The notes beneath the pieces are model-generated. The model had not been told where the DNA came from, did not search any database, and saw nothing but the letters and a program-made list of their open reading frames with translations. Positions 30,828 to 60,483 of a stretch of 64,000 nt of DNA are shown here, piece after piece (the stretch's first letter is position 1; every line of letters starts with the position of its first letter). The position numbers and the translations under genes were made by a program. The DNA is taken from assembly GCA_965208575.1 (NCBI GenBank), contig CBDBOV010000002.1:96001-160000 (forward strand), given 5' to 3'. Source of the stretch: Spirochaetia bacterium (GTDB taxonomy: Bacteria; Spirochaetota; Spirochaetia; SZUA-6; Bin103).

Positions 30828-31925
30828 TTGGCTCTGCTGGCGGTGCGGCTCACCGATTTTCGCAACATCGCATCGCTGCGCATCGACATCGACGGCCGCG
30901 ACGTGTTCCTGATTGGTGACAACGGGCAGGGCAAGACCAATTTCCTGGAAGCGGTCTATCTGCTGTGCTACGGCGCCTCGTTCCGCACCCGCAACGACCG
31001 CGACCTGATAGCCAATGGCAGCCGCGAGGCAGCCGTGTGGGGCCGGCTGGCCGCCGGCGACGAGCAGCGCGGCGTCGGCATCGGCCTGGAGCGAAGCGCC
31101 GGCAAGCGGATCGCGGTAGACGGCAAGCGCATTCGCGACCGTGCGGCACTGATCGAGTTCGCCCCGGCGATTGCCTTTACCCACGAGGACCTGCGCTTCA
31201 TCGACGGAGATCCGGAGCGGCGCCGGAGTCTGTTCGATCACACGCTGTCGCTGTTCAACCCGTCGTTCATCGACGTGCTGCGGCGCTACCGGCGCGCGCT
31301 GCGGGCGCGCAATGCGCTGCTGCGCACCGGCGACGGCCGGCACGTCGACGTATACGAGCCGGTGCTCGCGACGGCGGGTTGGGAAATCCGCACCCGGCGC
31401 GGCGAACTGTGCGCCGAGTTTGCCTCCGTGTTCGCGGATCTGTGCGATCGAATCGGCGGCATGCGGGACGCCAACATCGAGTATCGTCCGTCCTGGCGGC
31501 GGGCGGCGTGCGCCGACGACGCCGAGTCCGAGTTGCGCGCGCGCCTGGAGCGCGACCTTGCCGCCGGTACCACGACCAGCGGTCCGCACCGTGACGACTT
31601 CCTGATTACGCTCGGAGAGGCGCGCTTCGCGGCGCAGGGATCGACCGGCCAGAAGCGGCTGGCGTCGCTGGTGCTGCGCGTTGCCCAGGCGGAGTTCTTC
31701 GAGCGCACCACCGGGAGGCGGCCGATCCTGCTGCTCGACGACGTGCTGCTGGAGCTGGACGCCGGCAAGCGGGAGCGGTTTCTGCGTCACCTGCCGGCGT
31801 ACGAGCAGGCGTTCTTTACCTTTCTTCCCGACGAACCGTACCAGCGCTACGGGCGCGCCGGAACCATCAGGGTTGCCGTGTCCGGGGGAGCGTTCACACC
31901 ATGTACCGAGCCGGCGACCTGCTGA
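30828..31925 (+). CDS. recF: DNA replication/repair protein RecF
   Basis: FRN, GDNGQGKTN, GPHRDD, STGQ, LLLDDV. Confidence 0.95.
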   Translation: MALLAVRLTDFRNIASLRIDIDGRDVFLIGDNGQGKTNFLEAVYLLCYGASFRTRNDRDLIANGSREAAVWGRLAAGDEQRGVGIGLERSAGKRIAVDGKRIRDRAALIEFAPAIAFTHEDLRFIDGDPERRRSLFDHTLSLFNPSFIDVLRRYRRALRARNALLRTGDGRHVDVYEPVLATAGWEIRTRRGELCAEFASVFADLCDRIGGMRDANIEYRPSWRRAACADDAESELRARLERDLAAGTTTSGPHRDDFLITLGEARFAAQGSTGQKRLASLVLRVAQAEFFERTTGRRPILLLDDVLLELDAGKRERFLRHLPAYEQAFFTFLPDEPYQRYGRAGTIRVAVSGGAFTPCTEPATC

Positions 31926-32290
31926 AGGAGGTGCTCGCGCGCGCCGGGTTCGACGCGCAGGCGCCGGAGGCACGCATCTACCGCGTGTGGGACGACATCC
32001 TCGGGCGCGACCTGTCCGGCCGCGCGCGCCTGCGCGACATCGACCGCGGACGCCTGCTGGTGGAGGTGGATCACCCGGCGTGGATGCAGTTGGTGCAGAT
32101 GCGGCAGCGCCAGATTCTGCGTCGCGTGGCTCGCCGGTTTCCGGCGCTCGGCATTACCCGCCTGCACCTGGTGGTGCGGCCGGCCGCGCCGCCCGCTTCG
32201 GAGCGCCGTCCGGGCGGTGCGGGCGCCGCTGCCGGGCCGCCTCGGCCCCCCGGGCCGGATCCGGACCTATTGCCTCACGTAAAAATCTAA
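31901..32290 (+). CDS. dciA: DUF721/DciA family protein; last 7 aa and stop supplied by the transposon end
   Basis: Position after recF; WDDILG, VEVDHPAWMQ; without the element the gene ends ...CCG GAT TGA. Confidence 0.8.
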   Translation: MYRAGDLLKEVLARAGFDAQAPEARIYRVWDDILGRDLSGRARLRDIDRGRLLVEVDHPAWMQLVQMRQRQILRRVARRFPALGITRLHLVVRPAAPPASERRPGGAGAAAGPPRPPGPDPDLLPHVKI

Positions 32291-32563
32291 CCTTACGGTG
32301 AGCGTGCCTCACGTAAGAATCTAACCGAAAGGGAGGCGGAGAACGAGGGGGGAGCGCGAGGGGGGAGACTCATAAATTGTGGATAAGTGGATAGGCTGCT
32401 GGGCGACCGGCCGGGTTGATTCAAGCACACCAACGCGACCGGGGGCGTATCTGGTTGGTCGGCGCGGATGAGGAGGCGTCAACGGCAGGGAGGTGGTCGG
32501 TGCCGTGTCGTGTCGCTGACCGAAGAGGGGGCGGACGGGTCTGGAGGCGACTTCGGTGCTGGT

Positions 32564-34599
32564 GACACGGGGATGTCCAGACACCACCTCGTGTCGCGGA
32601 GAGGCCTTACAGCGCGGCTGAGGCGACATTTCTTGACGCCGACCGTCTGGCTCACGGATATACGGGCGTCAGAGACGCTCAGAAGTCATTTGCCGAGCCG
32701 GGTGATGCCGCCCACGCCGCGAGCGGCGCGCAGGTTGCTGCGGAGCGCACGGAGCGAGGCGCCCCGGACAACTGCACCGAGGTGCGTTGCCCGGGGCAGG
32801 GTCATGACAATTCCCCACCGCCGGGACGGGGTAGGCGACGAGGTTGCGACACCGGAGCCGTCGGGATCGAACGGGGCGGAGGAGATGCTGTACCCCGCTG
32901 ACGGACGGAGGGCGTAGCCCGACCGGAGTCAGCCGGCGCGGTGCCGTGGAGGCCACCGTGGACGACGCCGAGATGGCGGACCAGGCAGCCAAGCTGCTCG
33001 CTTCCGGGATGAGCGGCTCAGCCTGCGCTCGCGAACTCGGCATCCCGGTGAGCACCTTCAACGAGAACCGCCGCGCCGGCGTCATCACAGATCCCACCCG
33101 GGAGCCCGCCGCCAGCGCCGAGGTTGCGCCGGCGGCCACCACCACTGATCACCCGGTCAGCACCGCCGCCGCGGTCAGCGACCCGGCGGTCGCCACTGAG
33201 CGCGCCAGCCGCGACGCCCGCGACAAGCACGCGCCCATGGGCCGCGCGGCGCGCGACGTGGAACGCCGCACGCTCGCCAGAGCCGGCCTGCTGACCGAGG
33301 CCACACCAGCGTTCGTCGAGCCCGCCCACGCGGTCGCTGGCGGCGGCGTGCTGGCCGCACTGGCGATGCTGCTGCGCGAGGGCCTGCTCACCGCCGCCAA
33401 CCGCCTGTTCCGCCTGCCGGCCGGATTCTACGGCCTGACCACCATCCTCCTGTTCGTCGCCTGCATGACCCTGGCCCGGGTGCGCAACCCCGAGAGCCTG
33501 CGCTACCAGGCACCCGGCGAGTGGGGCGCCATCCTCGGCCTCGACCGCTGTCCGGAGACCAAGACGCTGCGCCGCAAGATCAGGCTGCTGGCCAGCGCCG
33601 AGCACACCGTGCGCGATTGGCAATCGGTACTGGCGCGTACCTGGGCCAGCGAGCACGACGACGACTGGACGACGCTGGCCGTGGATGGCCACGTGAAGGT
33701 GTACACCGGGCGCAACGGGCGGTTGCCGAAACACTTCGTCGCACGCCAGAAGCTGTGTCTGCCGGCGTCGGTGAGCTACTGGATCAACGCCCTCGGCGGC
33801 GCACCGCTGCTGTGCCTGCACAAGGCGCTGGACCCGAAGCCGGTGAATGCGATCAAGCACGACGTGGTGCCGCAGTTGCAGCACCTGGGGGTGGTGACCG
33901 AAGCGGCCCCCGACCTGACCGGAGCACCGGCCGGTACCCCGCAGCTGACCCTGGTGTTCGACCGCGAGGGCTGGAGCCCGGACCTGTTCAAGCGCCTGGC
34001 CCGGCGTGGCATCGCCTGCATCACCTGGCACAAGAACTTCAACGGCGCGGACTGGCTGCCGGAAGACTTCCACACCTTCGAGGTACCGATCCATGGTCCC
34101 GCCGGCACCAGCACGACTGCGGTTGATCTGGCCGAGCAGCCGATCATGCTGCGCAACGGGCTGGTGGTGCGCCAGATCCGGCGGCGTCTGGCCAACGGTC
34201 GTCAGGTGGCGGTGATCACCACGCACCCGCAGATGCCGTTGGCGCAGGTCGCCGGCGCCATGTTCTCGCGCTGGTCGCAGGAGAACTTCTTCAAGTACCT
34301 GCGCGAGCAGTTCAACCTTGACGCGCTGCCGAGCCATGACCTTGCGCCGCCGGAGCCCGACGCACGGGTCGTGAACCGGTGCGCCGGGCCCTGGAAAAGA
34401 GCATCAGGCGGGTACGCAGCCGGCTGGCAGCGGTCCGCAATCGCCTCGCCGAGGCACTGCAGGGACGGCACCGGGACTCCGCCACCCGGCTTACGGTCGC
34501 GGATAAAGTTGCACTGAATTGCATGGTTATGCATAGACACGGGGGTATCCAGACACCACCTCGTGTCGTGGAGGGGCCTTACAGCGCGGCTGAGGCGAC
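32564..34599. repeat. 64-bp internal direct repeats (32564-32627 and 34536-34599) bracketing the cargo
   Basis: GACACGGGG..TCCAGACACCACCTCGTGTCG..GCCTTACAGCGCGGCTGAGGCGAC, 60/64 identical by eye. Confidence 0.85.
32946..34517 (+). pseudogene. Truncated, frameshifted second transposase carried as cargo
   Basis: HTH (SACARELGIPVST), GLDRCPE, VDGH, VFDREG, RWSQENFFK; frame changes at VVN (~34377) into RRALEKSIRR; boundaries approximate. Confidence 0.75.
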
Positions 34600-34659
34600 G
34601 TTTTCTCATCGCTGACCGCCCATTCTCCGATTATCGACCGTCAGACCCGCCTGAGAGGG

Positions 34660-35934
34660 TCATTTTGCCGTGCGACCGCTGCCACCACGCTCCTCGCTCG
34701 GTGTTTGCACCGTGCTTGGTGCGGCCTTGGCGGTCTTGCTGACGTTCAGCTGCAGCAGATCCTCGGTCAACCTGGTCAGCTCGCGCTTGAGGGCGACCGG
34801 ATTCAACGTCGCGTACTGCTGCTTGAGGCGGTTCTTCACCTTCTCGCTCACCGACTCGGAGGCCAGCATGCGGTGATACGGCGTCTGCGGGTCGTCATAG
34901 ATGCGGCGCACCTTGCTGCCGGTGCGGGTTTTCTTCACCAGCTTCACCGAGGGATAGAAGAAGTTCACCAGCAGGCACAGCGGGCGGTATATCGCGTTGA
35001 GGGCAGCCAGTTCCCGGTCGGTGTCGTAACGCAGGTGGCCGACCGCCCGTCGCACCACGTGGCCATTCTTCTGCTCGACGTAGCAGGTGTCGTTCTTGCG
35101 ATGCGGGCGACCCCGAGTGAACGTGATGCCGTGCGCTTCGCAATAGCGCAGCAAATGATGATTGATGAACTCGCTGCCGTTGTCGGTGTCGATCCCCCGC
35201 ATCACGATCGGCAGGCTCTGCCGGGCAGCGTCGATCGCCTCGTGGGTCCAGCGCTGCGCCTTGTTCTGCACGCCGTACAGGTCGACCCAGCCGGTGTCAA
35301 CGTCGGTGATGGTGAGCGTGTGGCAGAAGTCGCCTGACGCGTTGCCGCCTTCATGGCCCACCAAGTCGATCTCGAAGAAGCCCGGCTCCTGCTCGTCCCA
35401 GTCAGCGAAGGTTCGGATCGCGATCTGATCCTTCAGGAGGGTGCCCGGCTTGGTGTGCGTGCGACCCTTCAGGCGCAGCCGTGCGCGCTCCTGCTGCAGC
35501 AGCCGGTCGATGGTCGCGGCGCTGATGGTCTGCAGCTTGCCGCGCACCGCTGCGGTCAGCTCGATCTCGCCGAACGACTCCAGCGTCGGCAGCATGGTGC
35601 GCAGCACGACCACCAGGCGCTTGCCGCACATGCAGTCGAACACGTACCAGATCAGCTTCAGAGCGACCAGCACCTCCTGGTCGTAGCGCCGCGGTCGCAC
35701 GCGGCGCTGGGCAGGCCGCGGACGCCCGACCACCAGCTTCACCAGTGTGCCGTCGACTCGCACCATGCGGGTCCGTCCCCACCAGGTCAACAGATGGATC
35801 GCGTACTTGCGCTGGTACCCGGTCGACTCGACGAACTCGTCGAGTATGCGCCCCTTCTCCTTCTTGCCCGCCCGACGATACCGCTGCGCGTGCTGCTCGG
35901 TGAGCTCTCGCCTTGAACTCATCTTCAACCCCAT
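34660..35934 (-). CDS. DDE (rve/integrase-core) transposase, 424 aa, possibly ISNCY-group
   Basis: EIDLVGH, DTDNGSEF, CYVEQKN catalytic segments; GGAGGAG RBS. Confidence 0.9.
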   Translation of the reverse strand: MGLKMSSRRELTEQHAQRYRRAGKKEKGRILDEFVESTGYQRKYAIHLLTWWGRTRMVRVDGTLVKLVVGRPRPAQRRVRPRRYDQEVLVALKLIWYVFDCMCGKRLVVVLRTMLPTLESFGEIELTAAVRGKLQTISAATIDRLLQQERARLRLKGRTHTKPGTLLKDQIAIRTFADWDEQEPGFFEIDLVGHEGGNASGDFCHTLTITDVDTGWVDLYGVQNKAQRWTHEAIDAARQSLPIVMRGIDTDNGSEFINHHLLRYCEAHGITFTRGRPHRKNDTCYVEQKNGHVVRRAVGHLRYDTDRELAALNAIYRPLCLLVNFFYPSVKLVKKTRTGSKVRRIYDDPQTPYHRMLASESVSEKVKNRLKQQYATLNPVALKRELTRLTEDLLQLNVSKTAKAAPSTVQTPSEERGGSGRTAK

Positions 35935-36065
35935 CTCCTCCGGAACCTCCTCACGTCCCTCGGAGAGGCTCCAACCGGACCCGGAAGGTCCAGCCCGTTC
36001 GGTTAGATTTTTAGATGAGGCATGCTTTCGCTACGGTTAGATTTTCGATGAGTCAATGCGCCGGA

Positions 36066-36095
36066 TTGACAGGAGCGCGGCGGCGCCCGTATACT
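36066..36095 (+). promoter_or_regulatory. Sigma70 promoter of the rpmH operon
   Basis: TTGACA-18-TATACT. Confidence 0.85.
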
Positions 36096-36142
36096 CGCAC
36101 GACTGAACTCGCGACCGGCGCCAGCCGGATTCCAAGGATCTC

Positions 36143-36298
36143 ATGAAACGTACCTACCAACCAAGCCGTACACGCCGCCGCCGGCGATTCGGGTTCCGGG
36201 AACGCATGAGTACGCGTTCCGGGCGCAACATTCTCAAACGCCGGCGACGGAAGGGGCGCACCAAGCTCTCGGTGTCGGATGAAAAGAAGCCTTACTAA
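36143..36298 (+). CDS. rpmH: 50S ribosomal protein L34
   Basis: Not in ORF track; [51 protein letters not shown]. Confidence 0.97.
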
Positions 36299-36671
36299 GC
36301 ACGAACGGGTTACCGACCGGCGCCGCGTGCGCAAGCTGTTCCGCGCCCGCTCCACGCCCCGCCGCAGCGGTCTGCGGGTGTACTATGCCGCCAATCATGC
36401 GGACCTGAGCCGGGTAGTGGTATGTCCGGCGCGTGGCTTCGCCCATGCGCCGGCGCGCAACCGGCAGCGCCGCCTGGTGCGTGAGGCGTACCGTCTTCTG
36501 AAACACCGCGTGGCGCCGGGCTACGACCTGCTGCTGCAGGTGCGGCCGCGGCGCCGTGAACTGGGCGTACGGGCGGCCGGCGAGATCCTTGCCGGGTTGC
36601 TCGACGGCGCCGGCCTGCTGCGCCCGCCGGTACACGACGGCGCGGGCGCGGGCCGGGGTCAAGCGCGATGA
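36279..36671 (+). CDS. rnpA: Ribonuclease P protein component
   Basis: Synteny; [14 protein letters not shown] motif. Confidence 0.9.
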
Positions 36672-36919
36672 GCCGGGTGCAGGCGGCCGGCGCGGGGCGG
36701 CGGATGCTCACGGCCGCGATCCGGTGCTATCAACTGTTGCTGTCGCCGCTGCTGCCGGCGAGCTGCCGCTTCCACCCGACCTGTTCCCACTACATGGCCG
36801 AGGCGGTCGCCACCCATGGCGTGGTGCGCGGGACGGGTCTCGGTCTGCGGCGCATTCTGCGCTGCCATCCGTTCCACCGAGGCGGCTACGACCCGGTTCC
36901 GCCGGCACCGCGGCGTTAG
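36668..36919 (+). CDS. yidD: Membrane protein insertion efficiency factor
   Basis: [25 protein letters not shown]. Confidence 0.93.
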
Positions 36920-36925
36920 ACTCCC

Positions 36926-38698
36926 ATGGATCGCAGAACCCTGATCGCCGTCGGCCTTTCGGTCGTCGTCATCGTCGGCAGCCTGCTGGTGCAGACGTTC
37001 CTGTTTCCGACGCCGGACGGCGCCCTCGGGTTGGGTGCGCCCACGGCCGCGAGGGTACCCGCCGCCGACCAGGACGCCGCGGCGGCGGGTGTTCGTCCCG
37101 ACGTGTTCGCGCCGGTTGCCAGCACGGTGGCCGCGGCCGGCGAAGACTCGGCGGTCGGGCCGCGCCTGATCGTCAAGGAGACCGACCTGTTTTCGCTGGC
37201 GTTTACTACCGCCGGCGGCGATCTCACTTCGATCAGGCTGAAGCAGCATCACGACGTGGACGGTACCGAGGTGGAACTGGTGCTGCGGCCCGAGCAACAT
37301 CGCCTGTTTACCGTGGCGTTCGGCGGCTTTCGCACCGAGCCGGTGGACGCCACCTTTTCGTTCCAGGAAGTGGACCAGTATACGTGGCGCTTCACGCGCC
37401 AGTTCACGGCCGAGGACGGCGTCCCGTTTACGCTCGCCAAGACGTACACGTTTCCGCCCAATTCGTACCTGTTCGAGCTCGAGATCGACATCGAAAACTC
37501 GGCCAACGCGCTGCCCGCGCTCAACTTCCAGGGCAGCTCCTACACGCTCGGCATCGGTCCGCAGATCGGCCCCGAGTACGAGAACCTGGACGGGCGCAAC
37601 GAGTTCCGCAACTTTCGCAACTACGTGGACGGCAAGGCGCGCAACCAGCGGATGCGGCGGGAAGCGGTGCTCGCCGAGACCAAGCGCGTCAACTGGACCG
37701 CGATCGCGGGCAAGTACTTCGCCATCATCGCGGTGCCCGACGCCACCCTGTACACGATCACCTACGACAAGCGCAAGGATCCGGAGCTGGGCGAACGCAC
37801 CGCCCTGTTCTTCAGCCGTCCGCAGATTACCAGTTCCCGCAACAGCGACACGTTCCGGTTCTACGCCGGTCCGCTGAAGCGGGAGATTCTGAACCGCTAC
37901 AACAACGCGGCGGCCGATCCGTTCGCGATCGGCAACTATCACTTCGAGGAGGCGGCGCGCACCAATCCGATCATCGGCTGGCTGGCCAACATACTGCGCT
38001 TCTTCCTGGACTTCTTCTACCGCCTCATTCCCAACTACGGCGTGGCCATCATCCTGCTCACCGTACTGATCAAGATTCTGTTCTTTCCGCTTACCCAGAA
38101 GAGCTTCGAGTCGACCAGCAAGATGAGCATGCTCGGTCCGAAAATCGAAGAGATCAAGAAGAAGTACCAGGGCAAGCCGGAGAAACTGAACCAGGAGATG
38201 ATGGCGCTGTACCGCAAGGAAGGCGTGAACCCGGTTGGCGGCTGTCTCCCGCTGCTGCTGCAGATGCCGATATTCTTCGCCCTGTTCGAACTGCTCAACA
38301 ATGCGTTCGACCTGCGCGGGGCGCCGTTCATCTCGCCCTGGATCGGCGACCTGTCGGCGCCGGAGAGCTTCTTGCCGTTCGGGTTCACGCTGCCGCTGCT
38401 GAACTGGGACGAGTTGCGCATTCTGCCGTTCGTCATGCTCGGAACCACGCTGCTGCAGTCGCGCATCTCGCAGAATCCGAGCGCCATGCAGCCGCAGATG
38501 AAGATGATGATGTACGCGATGCCGATATTCTTCTTCTTCATCCTGTACAGCATGCCGTCCGGGTTGGTGATCTACTGGACGATGCAGAACGTGCTGTCGA
38601 TTGCGCAGCAGCTTTACATCAATGACCGCCGCCGGCGCGCCGGACCGGACGCCGGCACGCCGGGCAAGGGCCGCGGTCCGCGCGGCAAGTCGCGTTAG
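36926..38698 (+). CDS. yidC: Membrane protein insertase YidC
   Basis: NYGVAIILLT, GGCLPLLLQMPIF, PSGLVIYW. Confidence 0.97.
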   Translation: MDRRTLIAVGLSVVVIVGSLLVQTFLFPTPDGALGLGAPTAARVPAADQDAAAAGVRPDVFAPVASTVAAAGEDSAVGPRLIVKETDLFSLAFTTAGGDLTSIRLKQHHDVDGTEVELVLRPEQHRLFTVAFGGFRTEPVDATFSFQEVDQYTWRFTRQFTAEDGVPFTLAKTYTFPPNSYLFELEIDIENSANALPALNFQGSSYTLGIGPQIGPEYENLDGRNEFRNFRNYVDGKARNQRMRREAVLAETKRVNWTAIAGKYFAIIAVPDATLYTITYDKRKDPELGERTALFFSRPQITSSRNSDTFRFYAGPLKREILNRYNNAAADPFAIGNYHFEEAARTNPIIGWLANILRFFLDFFYRLIPNYGVAIILLTVLIKILFFPLTQKSFESTSKMSMLGPKIEEIKKKYQGKPEKLNQEMMALYRKEGVNPVGGCLPLLLQMPIFFALFELLNNAFDLRGAPFISPWIGDLSAPESFLPFGFTLPLLNWDELRILPFVMLGTTLLQSRISQNPSAMQPQMKMMMYAMPIFFFFILYSMPSGLVIYWTMQNVLSIAQQLYINDRRRRAGPDAGTPGKGRGPRGKSR

Positions 38699-38721
38699 CT
38701 CATGAGATAGGAGAGGTCCGT

Positions 38722-39375
38722 ATGGCGGAACGGGAATTCGAGGGACGCACCGAAGAGGAGGCGATCGACAAGGCGATCGAAGCGCTCGGTCTTGCCGAGG
38801 ACGAGATCGACGTCGAAGTGGTCGACGAGCAGCGCCCCGGTTTCCTCAAGGGTGGCAGGGTTCGCATTCGTGTGCACCTCGCCGATGACGAGCCGGACGG
38901 CGCCGACTTGCAACCGGAGAACCCGTTCGAGGAGAGGGTCGTGGCGTTCGTCGCCGAGTTGCTCGAGCGGGCCAACCTGCCGGCTGACGTGCGCATCGAC
39001 CAGCGCGAGCAAGGGCGCCTGACGCTCGATATTCTGGCCGACGACCCGGCCATCGTGATCGGCAAACACGGCGCCACCCTGGAAGCCCTGCAACTGATCA
39101 GCAACATCCATGCCGGGCGCATAAACGACGGCGCCCCGGTGCGCGTCATCCTGGACACCGAGGACTATCGCTATCGCCGCGAACAGAGCCTGCTGCGCAT
39201 GGCGAACCGCGTTGCCCACGAGGTGCGCCGCACCGGCAGAGCGCGCCTGCTGGCGCCGCTGAACCCGTTCGAACGGCGCCTCATTCACACCGCCCTCGGC
39301 GAGATGAGCGGGGTCGCCACCGAGAGCGAAGGCGACGGCCTGTACAAGCAGATTCGGGTATCTTCCGTCGACTGA
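38722..39375 (+). CDS. jag: Jag/EloR (KhpB) RNA-binding protein
   Basis: EGRTEEEAI, IGKHGATLEALQ (KH), ERRLIH (R3H). Confidence 0.93.
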   Translation: MAEREFEGRTEEEAIDKAIEALGLAEDEIDVEVVDEQRPGFLKGGRVRIRVHLADDEPDGADLQPENPFEERVVAFVAELLERANLPADVRIDQREQGRLTLDILADDPAIVIGKHGATLEALQLISNIHAGRINDGAPVRVILDTEDYRYRREQSLLRMANRVAHEVRRTGRARLLAPLNPFERRLIHTALGEMSGVATESEGDGLYKQIRVSSVD

Positions 39376-39495
39376 AAGTGGCTGCCGGCGACACCTCGAA
39401 AGAACCGGCGTGGGGGTCTGCAAAGCAACGCCATAGCGGTACTTCTAGCCTTTACTTCGAGCCCGGTTACTGTTACAATTGAATCCGTCTTTTAG

Positions 39496-41466
<1,971 letters not shown>

Positions 41467-41523
41467 TGCGGCGCGGCACGGCGGTCCTGCGCGCAGATTC
41501 TCGCACGGTATTGGAGGGAGCGC

Positions 41524-43974
<2,451 letters not shown>

Positions 43975-44056
43975 CGCGCGCCCTGCGCGGCCATTTCGGC
44001 GCAGGCAGGAACGTCCGTACCGTTCGCAACGAGCGAGCGGCGCCGGTGCGAAGCAG

Positions 44057-44090
44057 GAGCGTTTCACGGGAAACCCGACGGTGAAACAAC
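44057..44090. promoter_or_regulatory. parS-like site in 34-bp repeat, copy 1
   Basis: GAGC GTTTCACGGGAAAC CCGACG GTGAAACAAC; core is 13/14 to GTTTCACGTGAAAC. Confidence 0.7.
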
Positions 44091-44434
44091 AGAGCACGGC
44101 GCCCGGTAATGGTCGCGGTGTCGCCGAGGGCATCCTCGTTGGCGTGCTGATCGGCGAAGGCCACTTCGGAGGCGACGGCCGGCAGCCGCAGGTCACGCTG
44201 CGGATGCACGTGGATCGCGAGGCGTTGTTCCGTTGGATCGTGGCGCGCTTCGGCGGCCGCCTGTACGGGCCCTACCACCATGGCGGGCGTCACTACTACC
44301 AGTGGATGGCCCGTGGCGAGGTTCTGCGTGAGCGGATCGTCCCGCTGCTCGACGCCTGCCTGAGCCCGGAACTGGATCGGCGCAGCTACGATCGCTACAC
44401 GGCGATGAAGGAGCGCTACCGCATCGGTGGCTGA
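44081..44434 (+). CDS. Free-standing single-motif LAGLIDADG-like protein (~117 aa)
   Basis: ILVGVLIGEGHF motif, then QVTLRM...FGGRLY...YYQW...IVPLL; start uncertain. Confidence 0.7.
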   Translation: MKQQSTAPGNGRGVAEGILVGVLIGEGHFGGDGRQPQVTLRMHVDREALFRWIVARFGGRLYGPYHHGGRHYYQWMARGEVLRERIVPLLDACLSPELDRRSYDRYTAMKERYRIGG

Positions 44435-44640
44435 CGGAATGGCGGGAGTGGGCCTGCGGGCAGCAAGCCTCGTCAGTGCAGAGCAGTGCAGAGCAACGTG
44501 CGCCCCGCACCCACGCAGACGCCGGGCGGCACTTGGGCACGGCTGCTTCCACGGAGGAGCCGGCGCAGCTTGCCCGCGCGACGCATGCGTGCCGCGCCGC
44601 CCGGCGTGGGACATCGATGGGGGCAGGTCGCTCACCCGCC

Positions 44641-44674
44641 GAGCGTTTCACGGGAAACCTGACGGTGAAACAAC
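44641..44674. promoter_or_regulatory. parS-like site in 34-bp repeat, copy 2
   Basis: 33/34 identical to 44057-44090; 60 bp upstream of parA. Confidence 0.7.
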
Positions 44675-44734
44675 TCCGGCGGACCGTCATGGTTTGCCAT
44701 CGACCGGCAACATGGCTATCGTTGAGCCGCGTTG

Positions 44735-45496
44735 ATGGCTCGGGCACGACGAATCGTTTTTGCGAATCAGAAGGGCGGCGTAGGAAAAACGACAACCGCC
44801 GTGAATCTCGGCGCCGCGCTGGCGGTGGCGGGGAAACGGGTGTTGCTGGTGGACTTCGATCCGCAGGCCAATTCGTCGACCAGCCTCGGCTGCGACGGCG
44901 AACTGGGTGGCGTCTACGAAATGATCACCGGCGAGCTTGCACCGGAGGAGGTGATCCGGCGCACCGCGGTACCGGGTTACGAGGTGGTGCCATCGAGCAT
45001 CAACCTGGCGGGAGCCGCGGTCGAGCTCGTCAACCTGGAGCGGCGCGAATTCTACCTGAGTGACGCGCTCGACGCCGTCGACAGCGCATACGACTTCCTG
45101 TTCATCGACTGTCCGCCGTCGCTCGGGATCCTGACGATCAATGGCCTCACCGCGGCGTCGCAGGTCATCATTCCGCTGCAATGCGAATATTTTGCGCTGG
45201 AGGGGCTGAGCGAACTGTTGAAGACGATCAAGCGGGTGCAGGGAACCCTGAACCCGGCGCTCACCGTGGGGGGGATTCTGTTCACCATGTTTGACGTCCG
45301 GACCCGGCTGTCGCAGGAGGTGGTGCGGGAGGTGACCGGGTTCTTCCGCCACCAGGTGTTCCGGACCATCATTCCGCGCAACGTCCGCCTCGGAGAGGCG
45401 CCATCCTATTCGCAGCCGATCCAGCTCTACGATCCGAAGTGCATCGGCGCGCGCAGTTACAACGAACTCGCCCGCGAGGTGGCGCAGCATGTCTAA
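44735..45496 (+). CDS. parA: ParA/Soj ATPase
   Basis: NQKGGVGKTTT, DFDPQAN, IDCPPSLG, IPRNVRLGEAPS. Confidence 0.96.
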   Translation: MARARRIVFANQKGGVGKTTTAVNLGAALAVAGKRVLLVDFDPQANSSTSLGCDGELGGVYEMITGELAPEEVIRRTAVPGYEVVPSSINLAGAAVELVNLERREFYLSDALDAVDSAYDFLFIDCPPSLGILTINGLTAASQVIIPLQCEYFALEGLSELLKTIKRVQGTLNPALTVGGILFTMFDVRTRLSQEVVREVTGFFRHQVFRTIIPRNVRLGEAPSYSQPIQLYDPKCIGARSYNELAREVAQHV

Positions 45497-46415
45497 GAGC
45501 CCATCCCGTCCGCGCCGCTCGGCTGCGAAGCGTGGTCTTGGGCGCGGCCTCGGTGCCTTGATGGGCGACCAGGCCGACCTCCCATTGGCCGGCGGCGTTG
45601 CCGAGATCGCCCTCGACGAGATCGACACCAGCGGCGATCAGCCGCGGGTCAGATTCGAGGAGGTCCCGCTCGCGGAGTTGACCCGGTCGATCGCCGCGCA
45701 CGGCGTGCTGCAGCCGATCGTGGTGGAACGGGTGGGCCGGCGCTACCGCGTGATCGCCGGAGAGCGGCGGCTTCGTGCCGCCCAGCGCGCCGGCCTGCAA
45801 AGGATACCGGCAGCGATACGTGCATCCGACGAAGACGACCGGCTTGTCCTGGCGCTGATCGAGAACATCCAGCGCGAGGACCTTACGCCCCTCGAGGAGG
45901 CGAACGCCTACCGTCGCATCATCGACGCGACCGGCGTCAGCCACGAGGAACTCGCCGTGCGCGTGGGCAAGCACCGCTCCACCATCGCCAACAGCCTGCG
46001 GCTGCTCGCGCTCCCGGAGGAGATGCGCAACGCGCTCTCGGAGGGCGCGATGACCGCCGGCCACGCGCGCGCGGTACTGATGATCCCCGATCCGGCGGAG
46101 CGCCAGCGGCTGTTCAAGCGCATCGCGCAGTATTCGGTACGCGAAGCCGAGGCGTACGCGGCGCGCGTGCGGGAGCGGCTCGAGTCCGGCGCGGCACGTC
46201 GCGCCGCGGACCAGTCCGGAGGCCGGCCCGGCGCTCGCCCGGCGCAGGGCACCGACCCGTATCTGCGCGACCTTGAACAACGCCTGATTGACGCCCTCGG
46301 CACGCGCGTGAAGGTGACCGGTACCGTGCGGCACGGCAAGATCGAGGTCACGTTCTTCAACATGGACGACCTCGAGCGCATCGACCGCCACATTACCGGC
46401 CGCTCGCCGAGCTGA
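45489..46415 (+). CDS. parB: ParB/Spo0J
   Basis: GLGRGLGAL, AGERRLRA, ENIQREDL, HTH, GHARA. Confidence 0.96.
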   Translation: MSKSPSRPRRSAAKRGLGRGLGALMGDQADLPLAGGVAEIALDEIDTSGDQPRVRFEEVPLAELTRSIAAHGVLQPIVVERVGRRYRVIAGERRLRAAQRAGLQRIPAAIRASDEDDRLVLALIENIQREDLTPLEEANAYRRIIDATGVSHEELAVRVGKHRSTIANSLRLLALPEEMRNALSEGAMTAGHARAVLMIPDPAERQRLFKRIAQYSVREAEAYAARVRERLESGAARRAADQSGGRPGARPAQGTDPYLRDLEQRLIDALGTRVKVTGTVRHGKIEVTFFNMDDLERIDRHITGRSPS

Positions 46416-46447
46416 TCGTTTCTGACCCGCGTCCGCCGCGCGCCGGA

Positions 46448-47404
46448 TCAGTCGCGCCGGGAGGCCTGCTCGTCGGTCTCGGTAGTCCTGCGCCGCCTGG
46501 CGCGGACCCATGCCTTCGGCACGGCCGCTCGCACCTCGGCCAGGTAATTCCTCCCGACCCGCACTTCGTGGTCGCCCGTCAGGAGCAGCAACGTCCGTCC
46601 GTCGCGGCGTACCGCGCGCTTGACGTGGCCATAGGCCGCCCAGTAGGAGCGGTGCACGCGCATGCCCAGGTCGCCGAGTTCGGCAACCGCATCGGAGAAG
46701 CGCAACAGGATGGAGGCGCTGCCGGCGGCGGTGATCACGTCCACGTAGTGCGCAGCCGCGGCGAGATAGATGATGTCGCGGCCCAACTCGTCCGGCAGGC
46801 GATCGAAGAATCTCGATTCCTTCGCTCCCGCGCGCCGGCGCGTATCGTCCAACGCCGTCGCCCGCACCTCCGCGGTGGCGGAGGGACGTGCGGAGTGTGC
46901 AGCCGTGGTCCCGCGCGGCGCGTCGTGGGGCACTTCCGCGCCGCGCGCCCCGGCCGCTTCCTCAGCCTCGGCGCGGCGATTGAGCCGTACCCACAGCACG
47001 TAGTACACGAGGGAGGTTGCCGAGAACAGGTAGAAAACGCAGGCTCCGTATATCCTGTCCAGCCGCAGGTCCCGTATCGGGGCGCCCGGAACCGCTTCGA
47101 ACACCGCCAGCACGATAGCCGTGCACGTTGCCCCGAGGACCAACACCATTGCCAGCAAGGCACATGCCATTACCACCGGCCGCTGATCGCGCACGACGTA
47201 GAACGTGAGCACGCAGCATGCATAGCTGATCGGGGATTGCAGCAACGCTACCAGACCGCTGTAACCGAGCCGCTGCGCCCACCCCATGCCGGCGTCGGCG
47301 TAGGTGGAACCGGACACCGCATTCTGCAACAGGAAGTAGCCGATCATTCCGACCACCAGCCAAGCGACCTGCGGCTTGAGCATTTCACGATGCGCAAACC
47401 GCAT
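46448..47404 (-). CDS. Membrane-anchored LytTR-domain protein
   Basis: About 4 N-terminal TMs; C-terminal HYVDV...RFSDAVAEL..GMRVHRSYW. Confidence 0.85.
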   Translation of the reverse strand: MRFAHREMLKPQVAWLVVGMIGYFLLQNAVSGSTYADAGMGWAQRLGYSGLVALLQSPISYACCVLTFYVVRDQRPVVMACALLAMVLVLGATCTAIVLAVFEAVPGAPIRDLRLDRIYGACVFYLFSATSLVYYVLWVRLNRRAEAEEAAGARGAEVPHDAPRGTTAAHSARPSATAEVRATALDDTRRRAGAKESRFFDRLPDELGRDIIYLAAAAHYVDVITAAGSASILLRFSDAVAELGDLGMRVHRSYWAAYGHVKRAVRRDGRTLLLLTGDHEVRVGRNYLAEVRAAVPKAWVRARRRRTTETDEQASRRD

Positions 47405-47567
47405 GCCGCCGACTGCCTCCCTGCTATTCAAGCCCCAGCACCTGCGCCGAATGCGCTATCGTCAACCGCGACGCTCAATCAAAGCCTCCATGTCCACGAG
47501 TATCCGCGCCCGCTCGCTCGGCCGCTGGCAACGAGAACCTCTCCCCAACAACCGTAAATTCTGTAAT

Positions 47568-47596
47568 AGTATAGCAATCTGCGGGTCGTCCTGCAA
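47568..47596 (-). promoter_or_regulatory. Putative sigma70 promoter of the LytTR gene
   Basis: Minus strand TTGCAG-17-TATACT with TGn extended -10. Confidence 0.7.
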
Positions 47597-47727
47597 CCTG
47601 TCGCATTGACTCATCGAAAATCTAACCGTAGCGAAAGCATGCCTCATCTAAAAATCTAACCGAACGGGCTGGACCTTCCGGGTCCGGTTGGAGCCTCTCC
47701 GAGGGACGTGAGGAGGTTCCGGAGGAG

Positions 47728-49002
47728 ATGGGGTTGAAGATGAGTTCAAGGCGAGAGCTCACCGAGCAGCACGCGCAGCGGTATCGTCGGGCGGGCAAGA
47801 AGGAGAAGGGGCGCATACTCGACGAGTTCGTCGAGTCGACCGGGTACCAGCGCAAGTACGCGATCCATCTGTTGACCTGGTGGGGACGGACCCGCATGGT
47901 GCGAGTCGACGGCACACTGGTGAAGCTGGTGGTCGGGCGTCCGCGGCCTGCCCAGCGCCGCGTGCGACCGCGGCGCTACGACCAGGAGGTGCTGGTCGCT
48001 CTGAAGCTGATCTGGTACGTGTTCGACTGCATGTGCGGCAAGCGCCTGGTGGTCGTGCTGCGCACCATGCTGCCGACGCTGGAGTCGTTCGGCGAGATCG
48101 AGCTGACCGCAGCGGTGCGCGGCAAGCTGCAGACCATCAGCGCCGCGACCATCGACCGGCTGCTGCAGCAGGAGCGCGCACGGCTGCGCCTGAAGGGTCG
48201 CACGCACACCAAGCCGGGCACCCTCCTGAAGGATCAGATCGCGATCCGAACCTTCGCTGACTGGGACGAGCAGGAGCCGGGCTTCTTCGAGATCGACTTG
48301 GTGGGCCATGAAGGCGGCAACGCGTCAGGCGACTTCTGCCACACGCTCACCATCACCGACGTTGACACCGGCTGGGTCGACCTGTACGGCGTGCAGAACA
48401 AGGCGCAGCGCTGGACCCACGAGGCGATCGACGCTGCCCGGCAGAGCCTGCCGATCGTGATGCGGGGGATCGACACCGACAACGGCAGCGAGTTCATCAA
48501 TCATCATTTGCTGCGCTATTGCGAAGCGCACGGCATCACGTTCACTCGGGGTCGCCCGCATCGCAAGAACGACACCTGCTACGTCGAGCAGAAGAATGGC
48601 CACGTGGTGCGACGGGCGGTCGGCCACCTGCGTTACGACACCGACCGGGAACTGGCTGCCCTCAACGCGATATACCGCCCGCTGTGCCTGCTGGTGAACT
48701 TCTTCTATCCCTCGGTGAAGCTGGTGAAGAAAACCCGCACCGGCAGCAAGGTGCGCCGCATCTATGACGACCCGCAGACGCCGTATCACCGCATGCTGGC
48801 CTCCGAGTCGGTGAGCGAGAAGGTGAAGAACCGCCTCAAGCAGCAGTACGCGACGTTGAATCCGGTCGCCCTCAAGCGCGAGCTGACCAGGTTGACCGAG
48901 GATCTGCTGCAGCTGAACGTCAGCAAGACCGCCAAGGCCGCACCAAGCACGGTGCAAACACCGAGCGAGGAGCGTGGTGGCAGCGGTCGCACGGCAAAAT
49001 GA
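47728..49002 (+). CDS. DDE (rve) transposase, same protein as 34660-35934
   Basis: Identical translation in ORF track. Confidence 0.9.
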   Translation: MGLKMSSRRELTEQHAQRYRRAGKKEKGRILDEFVESTGYQRKYAIHLLTWWGRTRMVRVDGTLVKLVVGRPRPAQRRVRPRRYDQEVLVALKLIWYVFDCMCGKRLVVVLRTMLPTLESFGEIELTAAVRGKLQTISAATIDRLLQQERARLRLKGRTHTKPGTLLKDQIAIRTFADWDEQEPGFFEIDLVGHEGGNASGDFCHTLTITDVDTGWVDLYGVQNKAQRWTHEAIDAARQSLPIVMRGIDTDNGSEFINHHLLRYCEAHGITFTRGRPHRKNDTCYVEQKNGHVVRRAVGHLRYDTDRELAALNAIYRPLCLLVNFFYPSVKLVKKTRTGSKVRRIYDDPQTPYHRMLASESVSEKVKNRLKQQYATLNPVALKRELTRLTEDLLQLNVSKTAKAAPSTVQTPSEERGGSGRTAK

Positions 49003-49144
49003 CCCTCTCAGGCGGGTCTGACGGTCGATAATCGGAGAATGGGCGGTCAGCGATGAGAAAACGTCGCCTCAGCCGCGCTGTAAGGCCCCTCCACGACACG
49101 AGGTGGTGTCTGGATACCCCCGTGTCTATGCATAACCATGCAAT

Positions 49145-50716
49145 TCAGTGCAACTTTATCCGCGACCGTAAGCCGGGTGGCGGAGTCCCGGTGCCGTCCC
49201 TGCAGTGCCTCGGCGAGGCGATTGCGGACCGCTGCCAGCCGGCTGCGTACCCGCCTGATGCTCTTTTCCAGGGCCCGGCGCACCGGTTCACGACCCGTGC
49301 GTCGGGCTCCGGCGGCGCAAGGTCATGGCTCGGCAGCGCGTCAAGGTTGAACTGCTCGCGCAGGTACTTGAAGAAGTTCTCCTGCGACCAGCGCGAGAAC
49401 ATGGCGCCGGCGACCTGCGCCAACGGCATCTGCGGGTGCGTGGTGATCACCGCCACCTGACGACCGTTGGCCAGACGCCGCCGGATCTGGCGCACCACCA
49501 GCCCGTTGCGCAGCATGATCGGCTGCTCGGCCAGATCAACCGCAGTCGTGCTGGTGCCGGCGGGACCATGGATCGGTACCTCGAAGGTGTGGAAGTCTTC
49601 CGGCAGCCAGTCCGCGCCGTTGAAGTTCTTGTGCCAGGTGATGCAGGCGATGCCACGCCGGGCCAGGCGCTTGAACAGGTCCGGGCTCCAGCCCTCGCGG
49701 TCGAACACCAGGGTCAGCTGCGGGGTACCGGCCGGTGCTCCGGTCAGGTCGGGGGCCGCTTCGGTCACCACCCCCAGGTGCTGCAACTGCGGCACCACGT
49801 CGTGCTTGATCGCATTCACCGGCTTCGGGTCCAGCGCCTTGTGCAGGCACAGCAGCGGTGCGCCGCCGAGGGCGTTGATCCAGTAGCTCACCGACGCCGG
49901 CAGACACAGCTTCTGGCGTGCGACGAAGTGTTTCGGCAACCGCCCGTTGCGCCCGGTGTACACCTTCACGTGGCCATCCACGGCCAGCGTCGTCCAGTCG
50001 TCGTCGTGCTCGCTGGCCCAGGTACGCGCCAGTACCGATTGCCAATCGCGCACGGTGTGCTCGGCGCTGGCCAGCAGCCTGATCTTGCGGCGCAGCGTCT
50101 TGGTCTCCGGACAGCGGTCGAGGCCGAGGATGGCGCCCCACTCGCCGGGTGCCTGGTAGCGCAGGCTCTCGGGGTTGCGCACCCGGGCCAGGGTCATGCA
50201 GGCGACGAACAGGAGGATGGTGGTCAGGCCGTAGAATCCGGCCGGCAGGCGGAACAGGCGGTTGGCGGCGGTGAGCAGGCCCTCGCGCAGCAGCATCGCC
50301 AGTGCGGCCAGCACGCCGCCGCCAGCGACCGCGTGGGCGGGCTCGACGAACGCTGGTGTGGCCTCGGTCAGCAGGCCGGCTCTGGCGAGCGTGCGGCGTT
50401 CCACGTCGCGCGCCGCGCGGCCCATGGGCGCGTGCTTGTCGCGGGCGTCGCGGCTGGCGCGCTCAGTGGCGACCGCCGGGTCGCTGACCGCGGCGGCGGT
50501 GCTGACCGGGTGATCAGTGGTGGTGGCCGCCGGCGCAACCTCGGCGCTGGCGGCGGGCTCCCGGGTGGGATCTGTGATGACGCCGGCGCGGCGGTTCTCG
50601 TTGAAGGTGCTCACCGGGATGCCGAGTTCGCGAGCGCAGGCTGAGCCGCTCATCCCGGAAGCGAGCAGCTTGGCTGCCTGGTCCGCCATCTCGGCGTCGT
50701 CCACGGTGGCCTCCAC
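49145..50716 (-). pseudogene. Cargo truncated/frameshifted transposase, copy 2
   Basis: Identical translation to copy 1, same frameshift. Confidence 0.75.
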
Positions 50717-51951
50717 GGCACCGCGCCGGCTGACTCCGGTCGGGCTACGCCCTCCGTCCGTCAGCGGGGTACAGCATCTCCTCCGCCCCGTTCGATCCCG
50801 ACGGCTCCGGTGTCGCAACCTCGTCGCCTACCCCGTCCCGGCGGTGGGGAATTGTCATGACCCTGCCCCGGGCAACGCACCTCGGTGCAGTTGTCCGGGG
50901 CGCCTCGCTCCGTGCGCTCCGCAGCAACCTGCGCGCCGATCGCGGCGTGGGCGGCATCACCCGGCTCGGCAAATGACTTCTGAGCGTCTCTGACGCCCGT
51001 ATATCCGTGAGCCAGACGGTCGGCGTCAAGAAATGTCGCCTCAGCCGCGCTGTAAGGCCTCTCCGCGACACGAGGTGGTGTCTGGACATCCCCGTGTCAC
51101 CAGCACCGAAGTCGCCTCCAGACCCGTCCGCCCCCTCTTCGGTCAGCGACACGACACGGCACCGACCACCTCCCTGCCGTTGACGCCTCCTCATCCGCGC
51201 CGACCAACCAGATACGCCCCCGGTCGCGTTGGTGTGCTTGAATCAACCCGGCCGGTCGCCCAGCAGCCTATCCACTTATCCACAATTTATGAGTCTCCCC
51301 CCTCGCGCTCCCCCCTCGTTCTCCGCCTCCCTTTCGGTTAGATTCTTACGTGAGGCACGCTCACCGTAAGGTTAGATTTTTACGTGAGGCAATAGGCCTG
51401 TCGAGCACGCATTGCGGGTGCGGGCGTAAAGCATGGAGGTGTCGCAGTTTGCACCGGTTCTGCACCCGTCGCGGCACAGGTTGCGTTACCTGGGATGCAC
51501 GGTGCGCGAATGGTCGGCGGAACTTTCGAGTTGCGTGGATTGGTTTGTCGGTGAGTGGGCTCGCCAGCCAACCGAGTGGGAGCCGGGATCTCGCGGGCCA
51601 GGGTCTCGCGGAGGGGCGGTCGTCGAGGCGCAATGCAGTGCCGGCCCCGGCGCCCATCTCACGTGTCGCGAATTGTCGGCACGAGCTGAAAACGGAGTGC
51701 GCGAAACGCCGCCCGTGATTCGGGCACGATGTGGGTCCTTGGTGAGCACCGAAGCGCGGAGGTGCTGCGTGGGTACACGGTCGTGGACCGCCGGCGCCGA
51801 ATCGCCGGGTCGTCGCGCTTGCCACGGAAGGTGCGGCGGCTTCCCGGACGAGAGGGCGCCCGGCGAGCGCCCGGGGGCGCGGGTAGAGCGGCCCGGGGCG
51901 AGCGGCGGTCAAAGGTGTACACCGCGTGCACGAATGTCGATGGGGGGAGAA

Positions 51952-59550: not shown

Positions 59551-60483
59551 GTGGCAGATCCAATGAACCTGAGGGACGAAGACGTCGGTCGCATAGCAGA
59601 GTACGTCAAGCCGTGGCTGCGCGAGATCATGCAGGAGATGGTTGCCCGCGTGGAGCCCGGCGGCGTGGGTGGGCAGTTCCTTGAGCGGATGGTCCGCATC
59701 GAGGAAGAGCTGAAAGCGCAGCGTGCGTTGATGGACGAGCGGTTCAACTTCATGGCGCAGTGCTTCGAGGCGGTCGACAGGCGCTTCGAGGAGACCGGCG
59801 CCCGCGCGGATGCGCGCGTCGAGGAGATGGGTGCGCGCATGGATACCCGCTTTGACGCGGTCGACAGGCGCTTCGAGGAGACCGGCGCCCGCACCGATGC
59901 GCGCTTCGAGGAGATGGGCGCAAGCACGAGTGTTCGCTTCGACGCCGTCGACAGGCGCTTCGAGGAGATGGGTGCGCGCACGGATGCGCGCTTCGAGGAG
60001 ATGGGTGCGCGCATGGATGCGCGCTTTGACGCGGTCGATACACGTTTCGAGGAGACCGGCGCCCGCACGGATGCGCGCTTCGAGGAGATGGGTGCGCGTA
60101 TGGATGCGCGCTTCGACGCGGTCGATACACGCTTCGAGGAGACCGGCGCCCGCGCCGATGCGCGCTTCGAGGAGATGGGCGCAAGCACGAGTGTTCGCTT
60201 CGACGCCGTCGACAGGCGCTTCGAGGAGATGGGTGCGCGCACGGATGCGCGCTTCGAGGAGATGGGTGCGCGCATGGATGCGCGCTTTGACGCGGTCGAT
60301 ACACGCTTCGAGGAGACCGGCGCCCGCACGGATGCGCGCTTTGACGCGGTCGATACACGCTTCGATGCCATCGACAAGCGCTTTGCAGACATGAATGCCC
60401 GCTTTACGACGTTGACCTGGATGATCGGCGTCGGGTTTGTGGTCATCACGTCGCTGACTACGGTGTTCGCGCTGCTCGCCTGA
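59551..60483 (+). CDS. Tandem-repeat coiled-coil protein with C-terminal TM anchor (Bdr/DUF1640-like architecture)
   Basis: GGAGG RBS before GTG; RFEEMGARxDA / RFDAVDR repeats; WMIGVGFVVITSLTTVFALLA tail. Confidence 0.8.
   Translation: MADPMNLRDEDVGRIAEYVKPWLREIMQEMVARVEPGGVGGQFLERMVRIEEELKAQRALMDERFNFMAQCFEAVDRRFEETGARADARVEEMGARMDTRFDAVDRRFEETGARTDARFEEMGASTSVRFDAVDRRFEEMGARTDARFEEMGARMDARFDAVDTRFEETGARTDARFEEMGARMDARFDAVDTRFEETGARADARFEEMGASTSVRFDAVDRRFEEMGARTDARFEEMGARMDARFDAVDTRFEETGARTDARFDAVDTRFDAIDKRFADMNARFTTLTWMIGVGFVVITSLTTVFALLA
59761..60400 (+). repeat. Coding tandem repeat: 87-bp unit (21+33+33) x about 6, with a 261-bp higher-order period
   Basis: Read directly from sequence and translation. 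Confidence 0.9.

Follow-up and report, generated by a model that had tools for sequence, protein, structure and literature searches.

Insertion of an rve-type insertion sequence at the upstream edge of predicted sigma70 -35 boxes in a Spirochaetia genome and among its relatives

Analysis of a 64,000-nucleotide stretch of the Spirochaetia bacterium assembly GCA_965208575.1 (contig CBDBOV010000002.1, positions 96,001 to 160,000 of the forward strand; called the window below) reveals two identical, mutually inverted copies of a 3795-bp insertion sequence (IS), each of which abuts a predicted promoter. Comparison of insertion sites shows a 5-bp stagger, seen as a target-site duplication (TSD), with the promoter-side cut placed exactly at the upstream edge of a hexamer that has the form of a sigma70-type -35 box. 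It also shows that the transposase-proximal end (...CAATGCG) always faces this predicted promoter, so that the core promoter stays intact and the transposase is divergent from it. All promoters in this work are predictions from sequence. The explanation that we consider best as a whole, with a probability of about 0.6, is that an IS moved by its rve-type transposase cuts at the -35 edge through capture of the RNA polymerase (RNAP) holoenzyme and thus obtains a harmless landing place. The features that define the two insertions are the following, in coordinates of the window.

32266-36060, plus strand: IS copy 1, 3795 bp; its distal end begins CCTATTGCCTCA... and its promoter-side end closes ...TGAGTCAATGCG
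47602-51396, minus strand: IS copy 2, also 3795 bp, in the opposite orientation to copy 1, from repeat comparison and reading of the ends
32261-32265: TSD of copy 1, distal side (CCGGA); the empty site of a sister genome has one CCGGA fewer
36061-36065: TSD of copy 1, promoter side (CCGGA)
47597-47601: TSD of copy 2, promoter side (ACAGG, minus strand)
51397-51401: TSD of copy 2, distal side (ACAGG, minus strand)
36066-36095, plus strand: rpmH promoter, TTGACA (36066-36071), 18-bp spacer, TATACT (36090-36095); conserved in 8 relatives
47568-47596, minus strand: promoter targeted by copy 2, TTGCAG (47596-47591), 17-bp spacer, TATACT (47573-47568)

The junction of copy 1 reads ...GAGTCAATGCG (up to 36060), CCGGA, TTGACA-18-TATACT, and that of copy 2, on the minus strand, reads ...GAGTCAATGCG (up to 47602), ACAGG, TTGCAG-17-TATACT. 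Both strings are exactly those given by the first-pass annotation of this DNA, and the TSDs were found on both sides of each copy. Automatic repeat detection gave a length of 3803 nt as it overran into the TSD and the TTG with 3 mismatches. A sister genome (L141), which is 98% identical to the present one over the first 340 bp of the rpmH flank, carries the empty site as an uninterrupted ...GGCCGGATCCGGATTGACAGG... with a single CCGGA less. The rpmH site is also empty in contigs of three other samples, in which the IS ends continue into other flanks of the form 5 nt plus TTGnnn. The target promoters, as predicted, are genuine and pre-existing: that of rpmH is found in conserved form in 8 relatives and occurs unoccupied in the sister genome and these three samples. 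The transposase was detected in 8 of the 21 related genomes searched and not in the closest one, which fits a recent burst in the present genome.

The first-pass annotation had proposed promoter targeting from two events only, a basis that is now exceeded by 29 copies in the genome and 97 sites overall. The assembly (6.5 Mb, 67% GC, 6 contigs) resembles a metagenome-assembled genome (MAG), with an estimated contamination of 5.75%, and its 29 IS copies are at least 99.9% identical. Both ends are intact in 26 copies, two copies are interrupted near a tip by another IS and the 29th runs off its contig. Matching 5-bp TSDs flank 25 of the 26 intact copies, and their sequences are all distinct except for two recurring 5-mers. 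Counted from the promoter-side end of the intact copies, position +6 is T and position +8 is G in every case (26/26 each), +7 is T in 19, G in 6 and A in 1, +9 is A or C, and +10 is C in 16. A TAnnnT motif follows at a spacer of 16-18 bp in 21 of these 26. Beyond the interrupting elements, the true flanks of the two interrupted copies read GGTGC|TGGAGT-17-TACGAT and CGAAC|TTGCGC-18-TATACT, so that all 28 readable flanks have T-n-G right after the 5-bp TSD and 23 of them have TAnnnT at a spacer of 16-18 bp. Four of the five flanks that lack TAnnnT have nAnnnT instead. The earlier claims that the insertions are independent, that the same end faces the promoter and that no gap separates the TSD from the -35 hexamer are thereby extended from two copies to the genome: the TSDs differ, all 28 flanks are different, and the last two properties hold in 28/28. 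The core promoter, which was claimed to survive insertion, is intact with a -10 element at sigma70 spacing in the 23 flanks with TAnnnT.

TAnnnT at the same spacing is found at 0.9% of the T[TG]G sites of the genome and at 5.6% of its 7839 TTGAC sites, which gives binomial P values of 6e-39 and 2e-22, respectively, for 21 of 26. Under a crude non-coding mask the background rises to 8.8%, a figure which is only a crude bound since the coding mask was too strict and covered 60% of the genome. For at least 23 of 28, a background of p=0.088 gives a P value of 3e-20, and even with p=0.35 as an assumption the value is 4e-7; over the backgrounds used, P ranges from 6e-39 to 3e-18. The flank of the other IS end served as control and has neither TTG (0/26) nor TAnnnT (0/26). 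Several open reading frames (ORFs) downstream of the target sites begin at +43 to +46, as leaderless transcripts would. Of the 20 downstream ORFs scanned, 16 have Pfam matches, and these belong to unrelated functions (PhyH, PIN, SBP, DEAD, Amt and others). The predicted promoter is the sole feature common to the target loci.

Three copies (C3:676227-672435, C5:316140-312345 and C6:3744-1) have flanking 5-mers that are mismatched within the copy and pair across copies, in the series CGTGC..CGAAC, CGAAC..ATGAC and ATGAC..contig end. The pattern of these 5-mers suggests that copies have recombined with each other, or that the assembly was joined across the 3.8-kb repeat. One of the rve-IS copies is cut at C3:292741 by a member of another family, a 2.0-kb IS which is present in 32 copies (for example C1:213641-215637) with short YTAR-type duplications (CTAA, CTAG, TTAG).

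The same arrangement is found in other genomes and in metagenomes. Sixteen distinct genome sites of elements with transposases of 44-85% identity, hosted by Spirochaetia MAGs, a Pirellulales MAG, an Actinomycetota MAG and others, have TnG in 15 and TAnnnT in 14. From a metagenome scan with a 21-sequence alignment, 80 of 560 confirmed loci were examined; 5 without an N-terminus, 12 without a recognisable tip and 10 with less than 40 bp of flank were dropped, which leaves 53 sites (42-57% identity). TTG is present in 44 of them, TnG in 47 and TAnnnT in 46, compared with about 0.9% per position for TAnnnT further out in the same flanks, and five of the ten short-flank loci still show a T[TG]G start of the hexamer. 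The hosts of the promoter-abutting metagenome sites are AT-rich and GC-rich alike. Among the sites that lack TTG, a correctly spaced -10 is found in 8 of 9, in one of them as a TGn extended -10. For all sets combined, TAnnnT stands at a spacer of 16-18 bp in 83 of 97 sites. The absence of -35/-10 enrichment, or a TTG preference without a -10, either of which the first-pass annotation had named as fatal to its proposal, is thus not what is seen. The -10 lies at a spacer of 16, 17 and 18 bp in 5, 42 and 20 sites, respectively, and the position of the -35 with respect to the cut does not vary. As an example, a plasmid copy in Mycobacterium riyadhense has the flank GGTAG|TTGCAT-16-TAAGCT. On the basis of predicted promoters, these sites show that promoter-edge insertion belongs to the transposase family as a whole and is shared between phyla.

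Duplications were also compared among the relatives. In a set of 1.6-1.9-kb elements (L002-L009) the 5-bp TSDs match in 7 of 8, the flanks of L008 being different. In the metagenome contigs the distal flank equals the proximal TSD in only 5 of 41, a low number that is probably due to the distal-tip pattern, which often hit an inner repeat; short contigs that end in repeats may also be chimeric. Our statements on TSDs rest on the present genome and on L002-L009 and not on the metagenome contigs. The tips across the family follow C-N-N-N-TTG(A/C)CTCA. The distal tip of the present element, which reads CCTA-TTGCCT-18-TACGGT, had suggested that IS tips might act as inward promoters. This idea was abandoned, because in the family TAnnnT follows the tip hexamer in 0 of 53 proximal and 0 of 41 distal tips.

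The internal organization of the element, given mainly for copy 1, is as follows.

34660-35934, minus strand: rve DDE transposase, 424 aa, with D190/D251/E287 invariant; its direction is away from the target promoter
47728-49002, plus strand: rve gene of copy 2
32844-34517, plus strand: passenger ORF, IS4-like Transposase_29 (PF21804), start uncertain; matches profile positions 6-360 of 562
32564-32631, plus strand: first copy of a 68-bp direct repeat flanking the passenger gene, 93% identical to 34536-34603
34536-34603, plus strand: second copy of the 68-bp direct repeat, between the convergent ORFs
32272-32326, plus strand: distal end, with two direct copies (32272-32292 and 32306-32326) of the presumed transposase-binding motif GCCTCACGTAA(A/G)AATCTAACC
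36001-36060, plus strand: promoter-side end, in which the binding motif occurs twice in inverted orientation (36001-36021 and 36035-36054), with the tip ...CAATGCG

Each end of the IS carries a motif of about 21 bp, GCCTCAnnnAAnAATCTAACC, twice, one copy being terminal and the other about 35 bp inside, and the same sub-terminal motif is present in the ends of the relatives. The tips are CCTATTG... on the distal side and ...CAATGCG on the promoter side. The start of the rve gene is 126 bp away from the promoter-side tip, and the gene reads away from the promoter, in agreement with the first-pass annotation. It is convergent with the second ORF of the element, which encodes a 557-aa Transposase_29 protein. 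The 68-bp repeats contain a short hairpin. Both of them are already present in a relative that lacks the passenger (L001, 5303-5401 and 5570-5710) and are therefore not a duplication made by insertion of the passenger.

The 424-aa protein matches the Pfam rve profile PF00665 over residues 182-279 with 36.9 bits (cut-off 32.6), and an alignment of 21 homologues shows D190, D251 and E287 to be invariant. An AlphaFold (AF2) model of the protein, with a mean pLDDT of 79.9, contains two N-terminal helical modules resembling helix-turn-helix (HTH) domains, an RNase H core, a small beta domain and C-terminal helices. The top Foldseek matches of this model are the integrases of the PFV and HIV intasomes, IstA and TnsB. 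A scan against NCBIfam (E<=0.01) returned weak IS481, IS30 and IS3 matches alone, with neither ISLre2 nor ISKra4 among them; the best named match is the IS481 model NF033577, whose 47.1 bits fall far below its cut-off of 224. Relatives on rhizobial plasmids (39-42% identity) are labelled 'ISNCY family transposase' by NCBI and closer relatives 'DDE-type integrase/transposase/recombinase'. At least 7969 homologues were counted among the candidates scored. One homologue with 51% identity (P0079) has as its source label a Candidatus Methanolliviera (archaeal) MAG. The Pfam match, the NCBIfam scan and the integrase-type fold bear out the earlier assignment of an rve-type DDE enzyme that is not Mutator-like.

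The picture given by the first-pass annotation needs one correction, as two ORFs of the element are transposase-like, the rve gene and the Transposase_29 ORF. The latter occurs in every one of the 29 copies and matches its Pfam profile strongly (5e-69). We regard it as very improbable that this IS4-like protein, instead of the rve protein, moves the 3.8-kb unit and picks its target. Relatives with a transposase of 73-85% identity are elements of 1.6-2.15 kb with the same tips, sub-terminal motifs and 5-bp TSDs, and they abut promoters in the same way; the Transposase_29 ORF is absent from L001-L009. In the present element the ORF lies between the internal 68-bp repeats and away from the ends, its match spans just positions 6-360 of the 562-position profile, and no separate copy of it exists elsewhere in the genome. 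Because relatives with the same ends and 5-bp TSDs do without the second ORF, comparative sequence evidence assigns mobilisation to the single rve-type protein and makes the Transposase_29 ORF a passenger or cargo.

How the target is recognised can be considered from the same sites. We infer, with slightly better than even confidence, that the target is captured via promoter-bound RNAP holoenzyme or its sigma factor rather than by reading of TTGACA alone. This is favoured because the -10 is kept in 8 of 9 sites where the -35 is unrecognisable, because the -10 floats by 16-18 bp as in sigma70 promoters while the -35 is fixed to the cut, because the accepted hexamers are as degenerate as sigma70 allows, and because the copies, recent as judged from their identity of at least 99.9%, shun the approximately 94% of TTGAC sites that have no -10. 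In the simplest case the transposase would touch sigma region 4 where it occupies the -35 box, or the bent DNA at the upstream edge of that box, and the asymmetric tips (CGC... and CCT...) would set the orientation of insertion. The pay-off would be a harmless landing place just outside genes that is available in every host. The primary sigma factor of the genome has a canonical region 4.2. However, several points weigh against capture of the holoenzyme. The T at +6 and the G at +8 are invariant in 28/28 flanks of this genome, and both IS tips carry TTG(A/C)CT four bases in, in all family members, which together make direct reading of a TTG-type motif by a transposase domain plausible. The flank of a more distant relative on Mesorhizobium pMLa (504 aa, 40% identity) does not look like a promoter, and poor matches are also seen at a few of the metagenome sites (L094, L087). 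Moreover, all insertions are survivors filtered by selection and not fresh events.

A serious alternative is that an HTH domain of the transposase reads a TTGACA-like hexamer and that insertions outside promoters, which would be mostly intragenic, are lost by selection. The invariant T and G, the family-wide tips with the same kind of motif as the target and the fact that every site examined is a survivor all speak in its favour, but we consider it rather unlikely. A -10 is found at 5.6% of TTGAC sites (8.8% with the mask) against 23 of 28 seen, and even the assumed 35% background leaves P=4e-7. With copies at least 99.9% identical, selection can have had little time to remove insertions, and many genes can be disrupted without harm. 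Such reading would also have to account for the correctly spaced -10 at 8 of 9 non-TTG metagenome sites, for accepted hexamers such as TGGCCA, TAGATC and GTCTAC, which are degenerate to the extent that sigma70 tolerates, and for a -10 that floats over 16-18 bp like the sigma70 spacer. Guidance by DNA structure, that is, by sharp bending or underwinding of the DNA at the upstream border of an RNAP-promoter complex or by intrinsic curvature of the promoter, with no binding of sigma or RNAP, appears improbable to us. Class II activators and the alpha-CTD occupy the edge of the -35 box, which is where the cut falls, and the fold of the transposase matches the PFV and HIV intasomes, IstA and TnsB. 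Integrase-fold enzymes are described as bending their targets strongly (PMC10045372). However, base-pair precision with strict orientation over 97 sites, in hosts from AT-rich to 67% GC, would be hard to obtain from shape alone, and the invariance of T and G speaks for a reading by position, either of the -35 box itself or of a protein bound there. It is true that intergenic positions upstream of promoters are generally tolerated, and one could imagine random or weakly biased insertion of which only pre-promoter positions are tolerated. The precision of the position refutes this, as an insertion anywhere in the upstream spacer would do just as little harm, whereas the gap is zero and the orientation the same in 28/28 flanks here and in the large majority of the 69 elsewhere, and the flank of the other end is blank (0/26).

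Capture of the holoenzyme by an integrase-fold enzyme would have a precedent in eukaryotes. The integrases of Ty3 and other LTR retroelements are tethered to the transcription machinery (TFIIIB, AC40, BET, Sap1). Like the present transposase, a Ty3-type integrase acts with near base-pair precision beside an initiation complex; however, those are eukaryotic retroelements working at Pol III or Pol II promoters, whereas the present element is a bacterial DNA transposon for which the tether is inferred. In bacteria, the Mutator-like TnGBS, ISLre2 and ISKra4 elements are reported to insert 15-17 bp upstream of sigmaA -35 boxes (Guerillot et al. 2014, PMC3942029). They share with the rve IS an oriented insertion upstream of sigmaA-type promoters. 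However, they belong to the Mutator-like (p-MULT) superfamily, which is unrelated to the integrase fold of the rve IS, they insert at a distance of 15-17 bp where the 5-bp TSD of the rve IS adjoins the hexamer, and their TSDs are 8-9 bp long instead of 5 bp.

The ISAjo2/ISAba32 group of the IS1202 family is similar in another respect. It is reported to land 5 bp, or one TSD, from the XerC arm of dif/pdif, and the authors propose that the transposase contacts the bound host protein (Harmer, Pong & Hall 2023, PMC10132070; Siguier et al., preprint 10.1101/2022.12.17.520857). The published accounts describe, as in the rve IS, a single-gene IS with an integrase-fold transposase, a 5-bp TSD (5-6 bp being the range of the group), a second internal copy of the inner inverted repeat (IR) at each end, and insertion in one orientation at one TSD length from a site held by a host DNA-binding protein. 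The landmark differs (the XerC arm of dif/pdif against the -35 box), as do the tips, which are TGT...ACA in IS1202 and CCT.../...GCG in the rve IS (C-N-N-N-TTG in the family). The diagnostic Q at E+7 of IS1202 is replaced by V294 (E287-QKNGHV-V294), followed by invariant R295 and R296; the comparison was made from published descriptions. IS481 elements share with the rve IS the rve core, N-terminal HTH domains and a single ORF, but their TSDs are mostly 6 bp against 5 bp, and the part of the IS481 account at our disposal makes no mention of promoter targeting (PMC10045372). The literature covered, which excludes subscription journals and supplementary tables, gave no description of any rve-type IS that abuts -35 boxes. 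The promoter hunters found there are the Mutator-like ones alone, and the rve-type geometry, as read from the junctions, appears to be new.

Elements of the Mutator-like kind are resident in the same genome. One ISKra4-family IS (1534 bp, 478-aa transposase) is present in 10 copies, for example at C3:670901-672434 and C5:596899-598432, and a second one (1438 bp, 435-aa transposase) in about 10 copies, for example at C3:50315-51752. The flanks of most of their copies show a TSD of 8-9 bp, 7 nt and then TTGnnn-17-TAnnnT, which places the insertion 15-16 bp upstream as published. The ISKra4-like copy at C3:670901 lies within the last 9 bp of an rve-IS copy and 16 bp from the same -35, at a promoter which the rve IS had occupied first, so that two unrelated promoter hunters are stacked at one promoter, each at its own distance.

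Promoter-like sites of this genome carry another kind of repeat. Tandem direct repeats are present at 91 of 745 such sites (about 12%), mostly with a period of 9-10 bp and with 2-9 copies of a unit that is specific to each promoter (for example C6:878343-878393, C1 minus strand near 363820, and C4:1171123-1171153). Their promoter-side ends are sharply positioned, and 36 of the 91 arrays stop 8-9 nt short of the first T of the -35 box; at TTGMM sites that have no -10 the distribution of array ends is flat, with no peak. Arrays also occur upstream of occupied IS sites, for example C1:412839 and C1:244383. At one orthologous promoter, three species (G000, G046 and G041) have three different arrays at the same offset. 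From their sequence, the arrays may be scars of repeated insertion and excision by a promoter-anchored element that makes 9-10-bp duplications. The resident ISKra4-like IS fit only partially as makers, since their TSDs end mostly 7 nt before the -35 as against 8-9 nt for the arrays. We found no literature on promoter-anchored tandem arrays of 9-10 bp.

Until now, only one superfamily, that of the Mutator-like TnGBS, ISLre2 and ISKra4 elements, has been linked to promoter-targeted transposition in bacteria. The present enzyme is unrelated to it and acts at the same landmark by another geometry, in hosts of several phyla, so that this strategy must have arisen at least twice. A broader picture, which we offer tentatively and hold to be somewhat short of an even chance, is that a very large cross-phylum family of single-protein integrase-fold IS is tethered by the holoenzyme, through sigma70 region 4, to the -35 edge, independently of the Mutator-like hunters and as a counterpart of Ty3, and that together with the ISKra4-like IS it rewrites promoter-upstream DNA, with the arrays as scars. 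If tethering is true, each insertion would be a base-pair-exact marker of a promoter in organisms that have not been cultured, obtained free of experiment. Insertions that point at -35/-10 pairs already provide promoter annotation for such bacteria. The family offers a compact single-protein system for studying how a transposase reads a transcription complex, and suggests a way towards tools for promoter-directed DNA insertion. The findings also concern the evolution of promoter-upstream regions, since an insertion separates the core promoter from its UP elements and activator sites. The arrays 8-9 nt upstream of the -35, if they are transposition scars, would represent a new mutational signature at bacterial promoters.

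The genes next to the two insertions in the window are listed below.

31901-32290, plus strand: dciA-like gene upstream of copy 1, whose frame enters the IS by 25 bp
36143-36298, plus strand: rpmH (ribosomal protein L34), followed by rnpA
46448-47431, minus strand: LytTR-domain gene downstream of the promoter targeted by copy 2

In the empty site the stop codon TGA of the dciA-like gene is located inside the rpmH -35 box (aTTGAca). Insertion takes this stop away (window 32255-32290 and 36061-36071), and the protein gains 7 residues (LLPHVKI). A 40-bp piece of the rnpA region has eight weak matches at C6:1112211-1117271 with an even spacing of about 714-726 bp, which suggests a long-period tandem repeat. 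IS are very numerous in this genome, in which at least ten families of repeats, 1.3-3.6 kb long, occur. The window itself also contains, at 59664-60446, a tandem array with a period of 87 bp, in which 7 overlapping copies of 261 nt are 64-92% identical.

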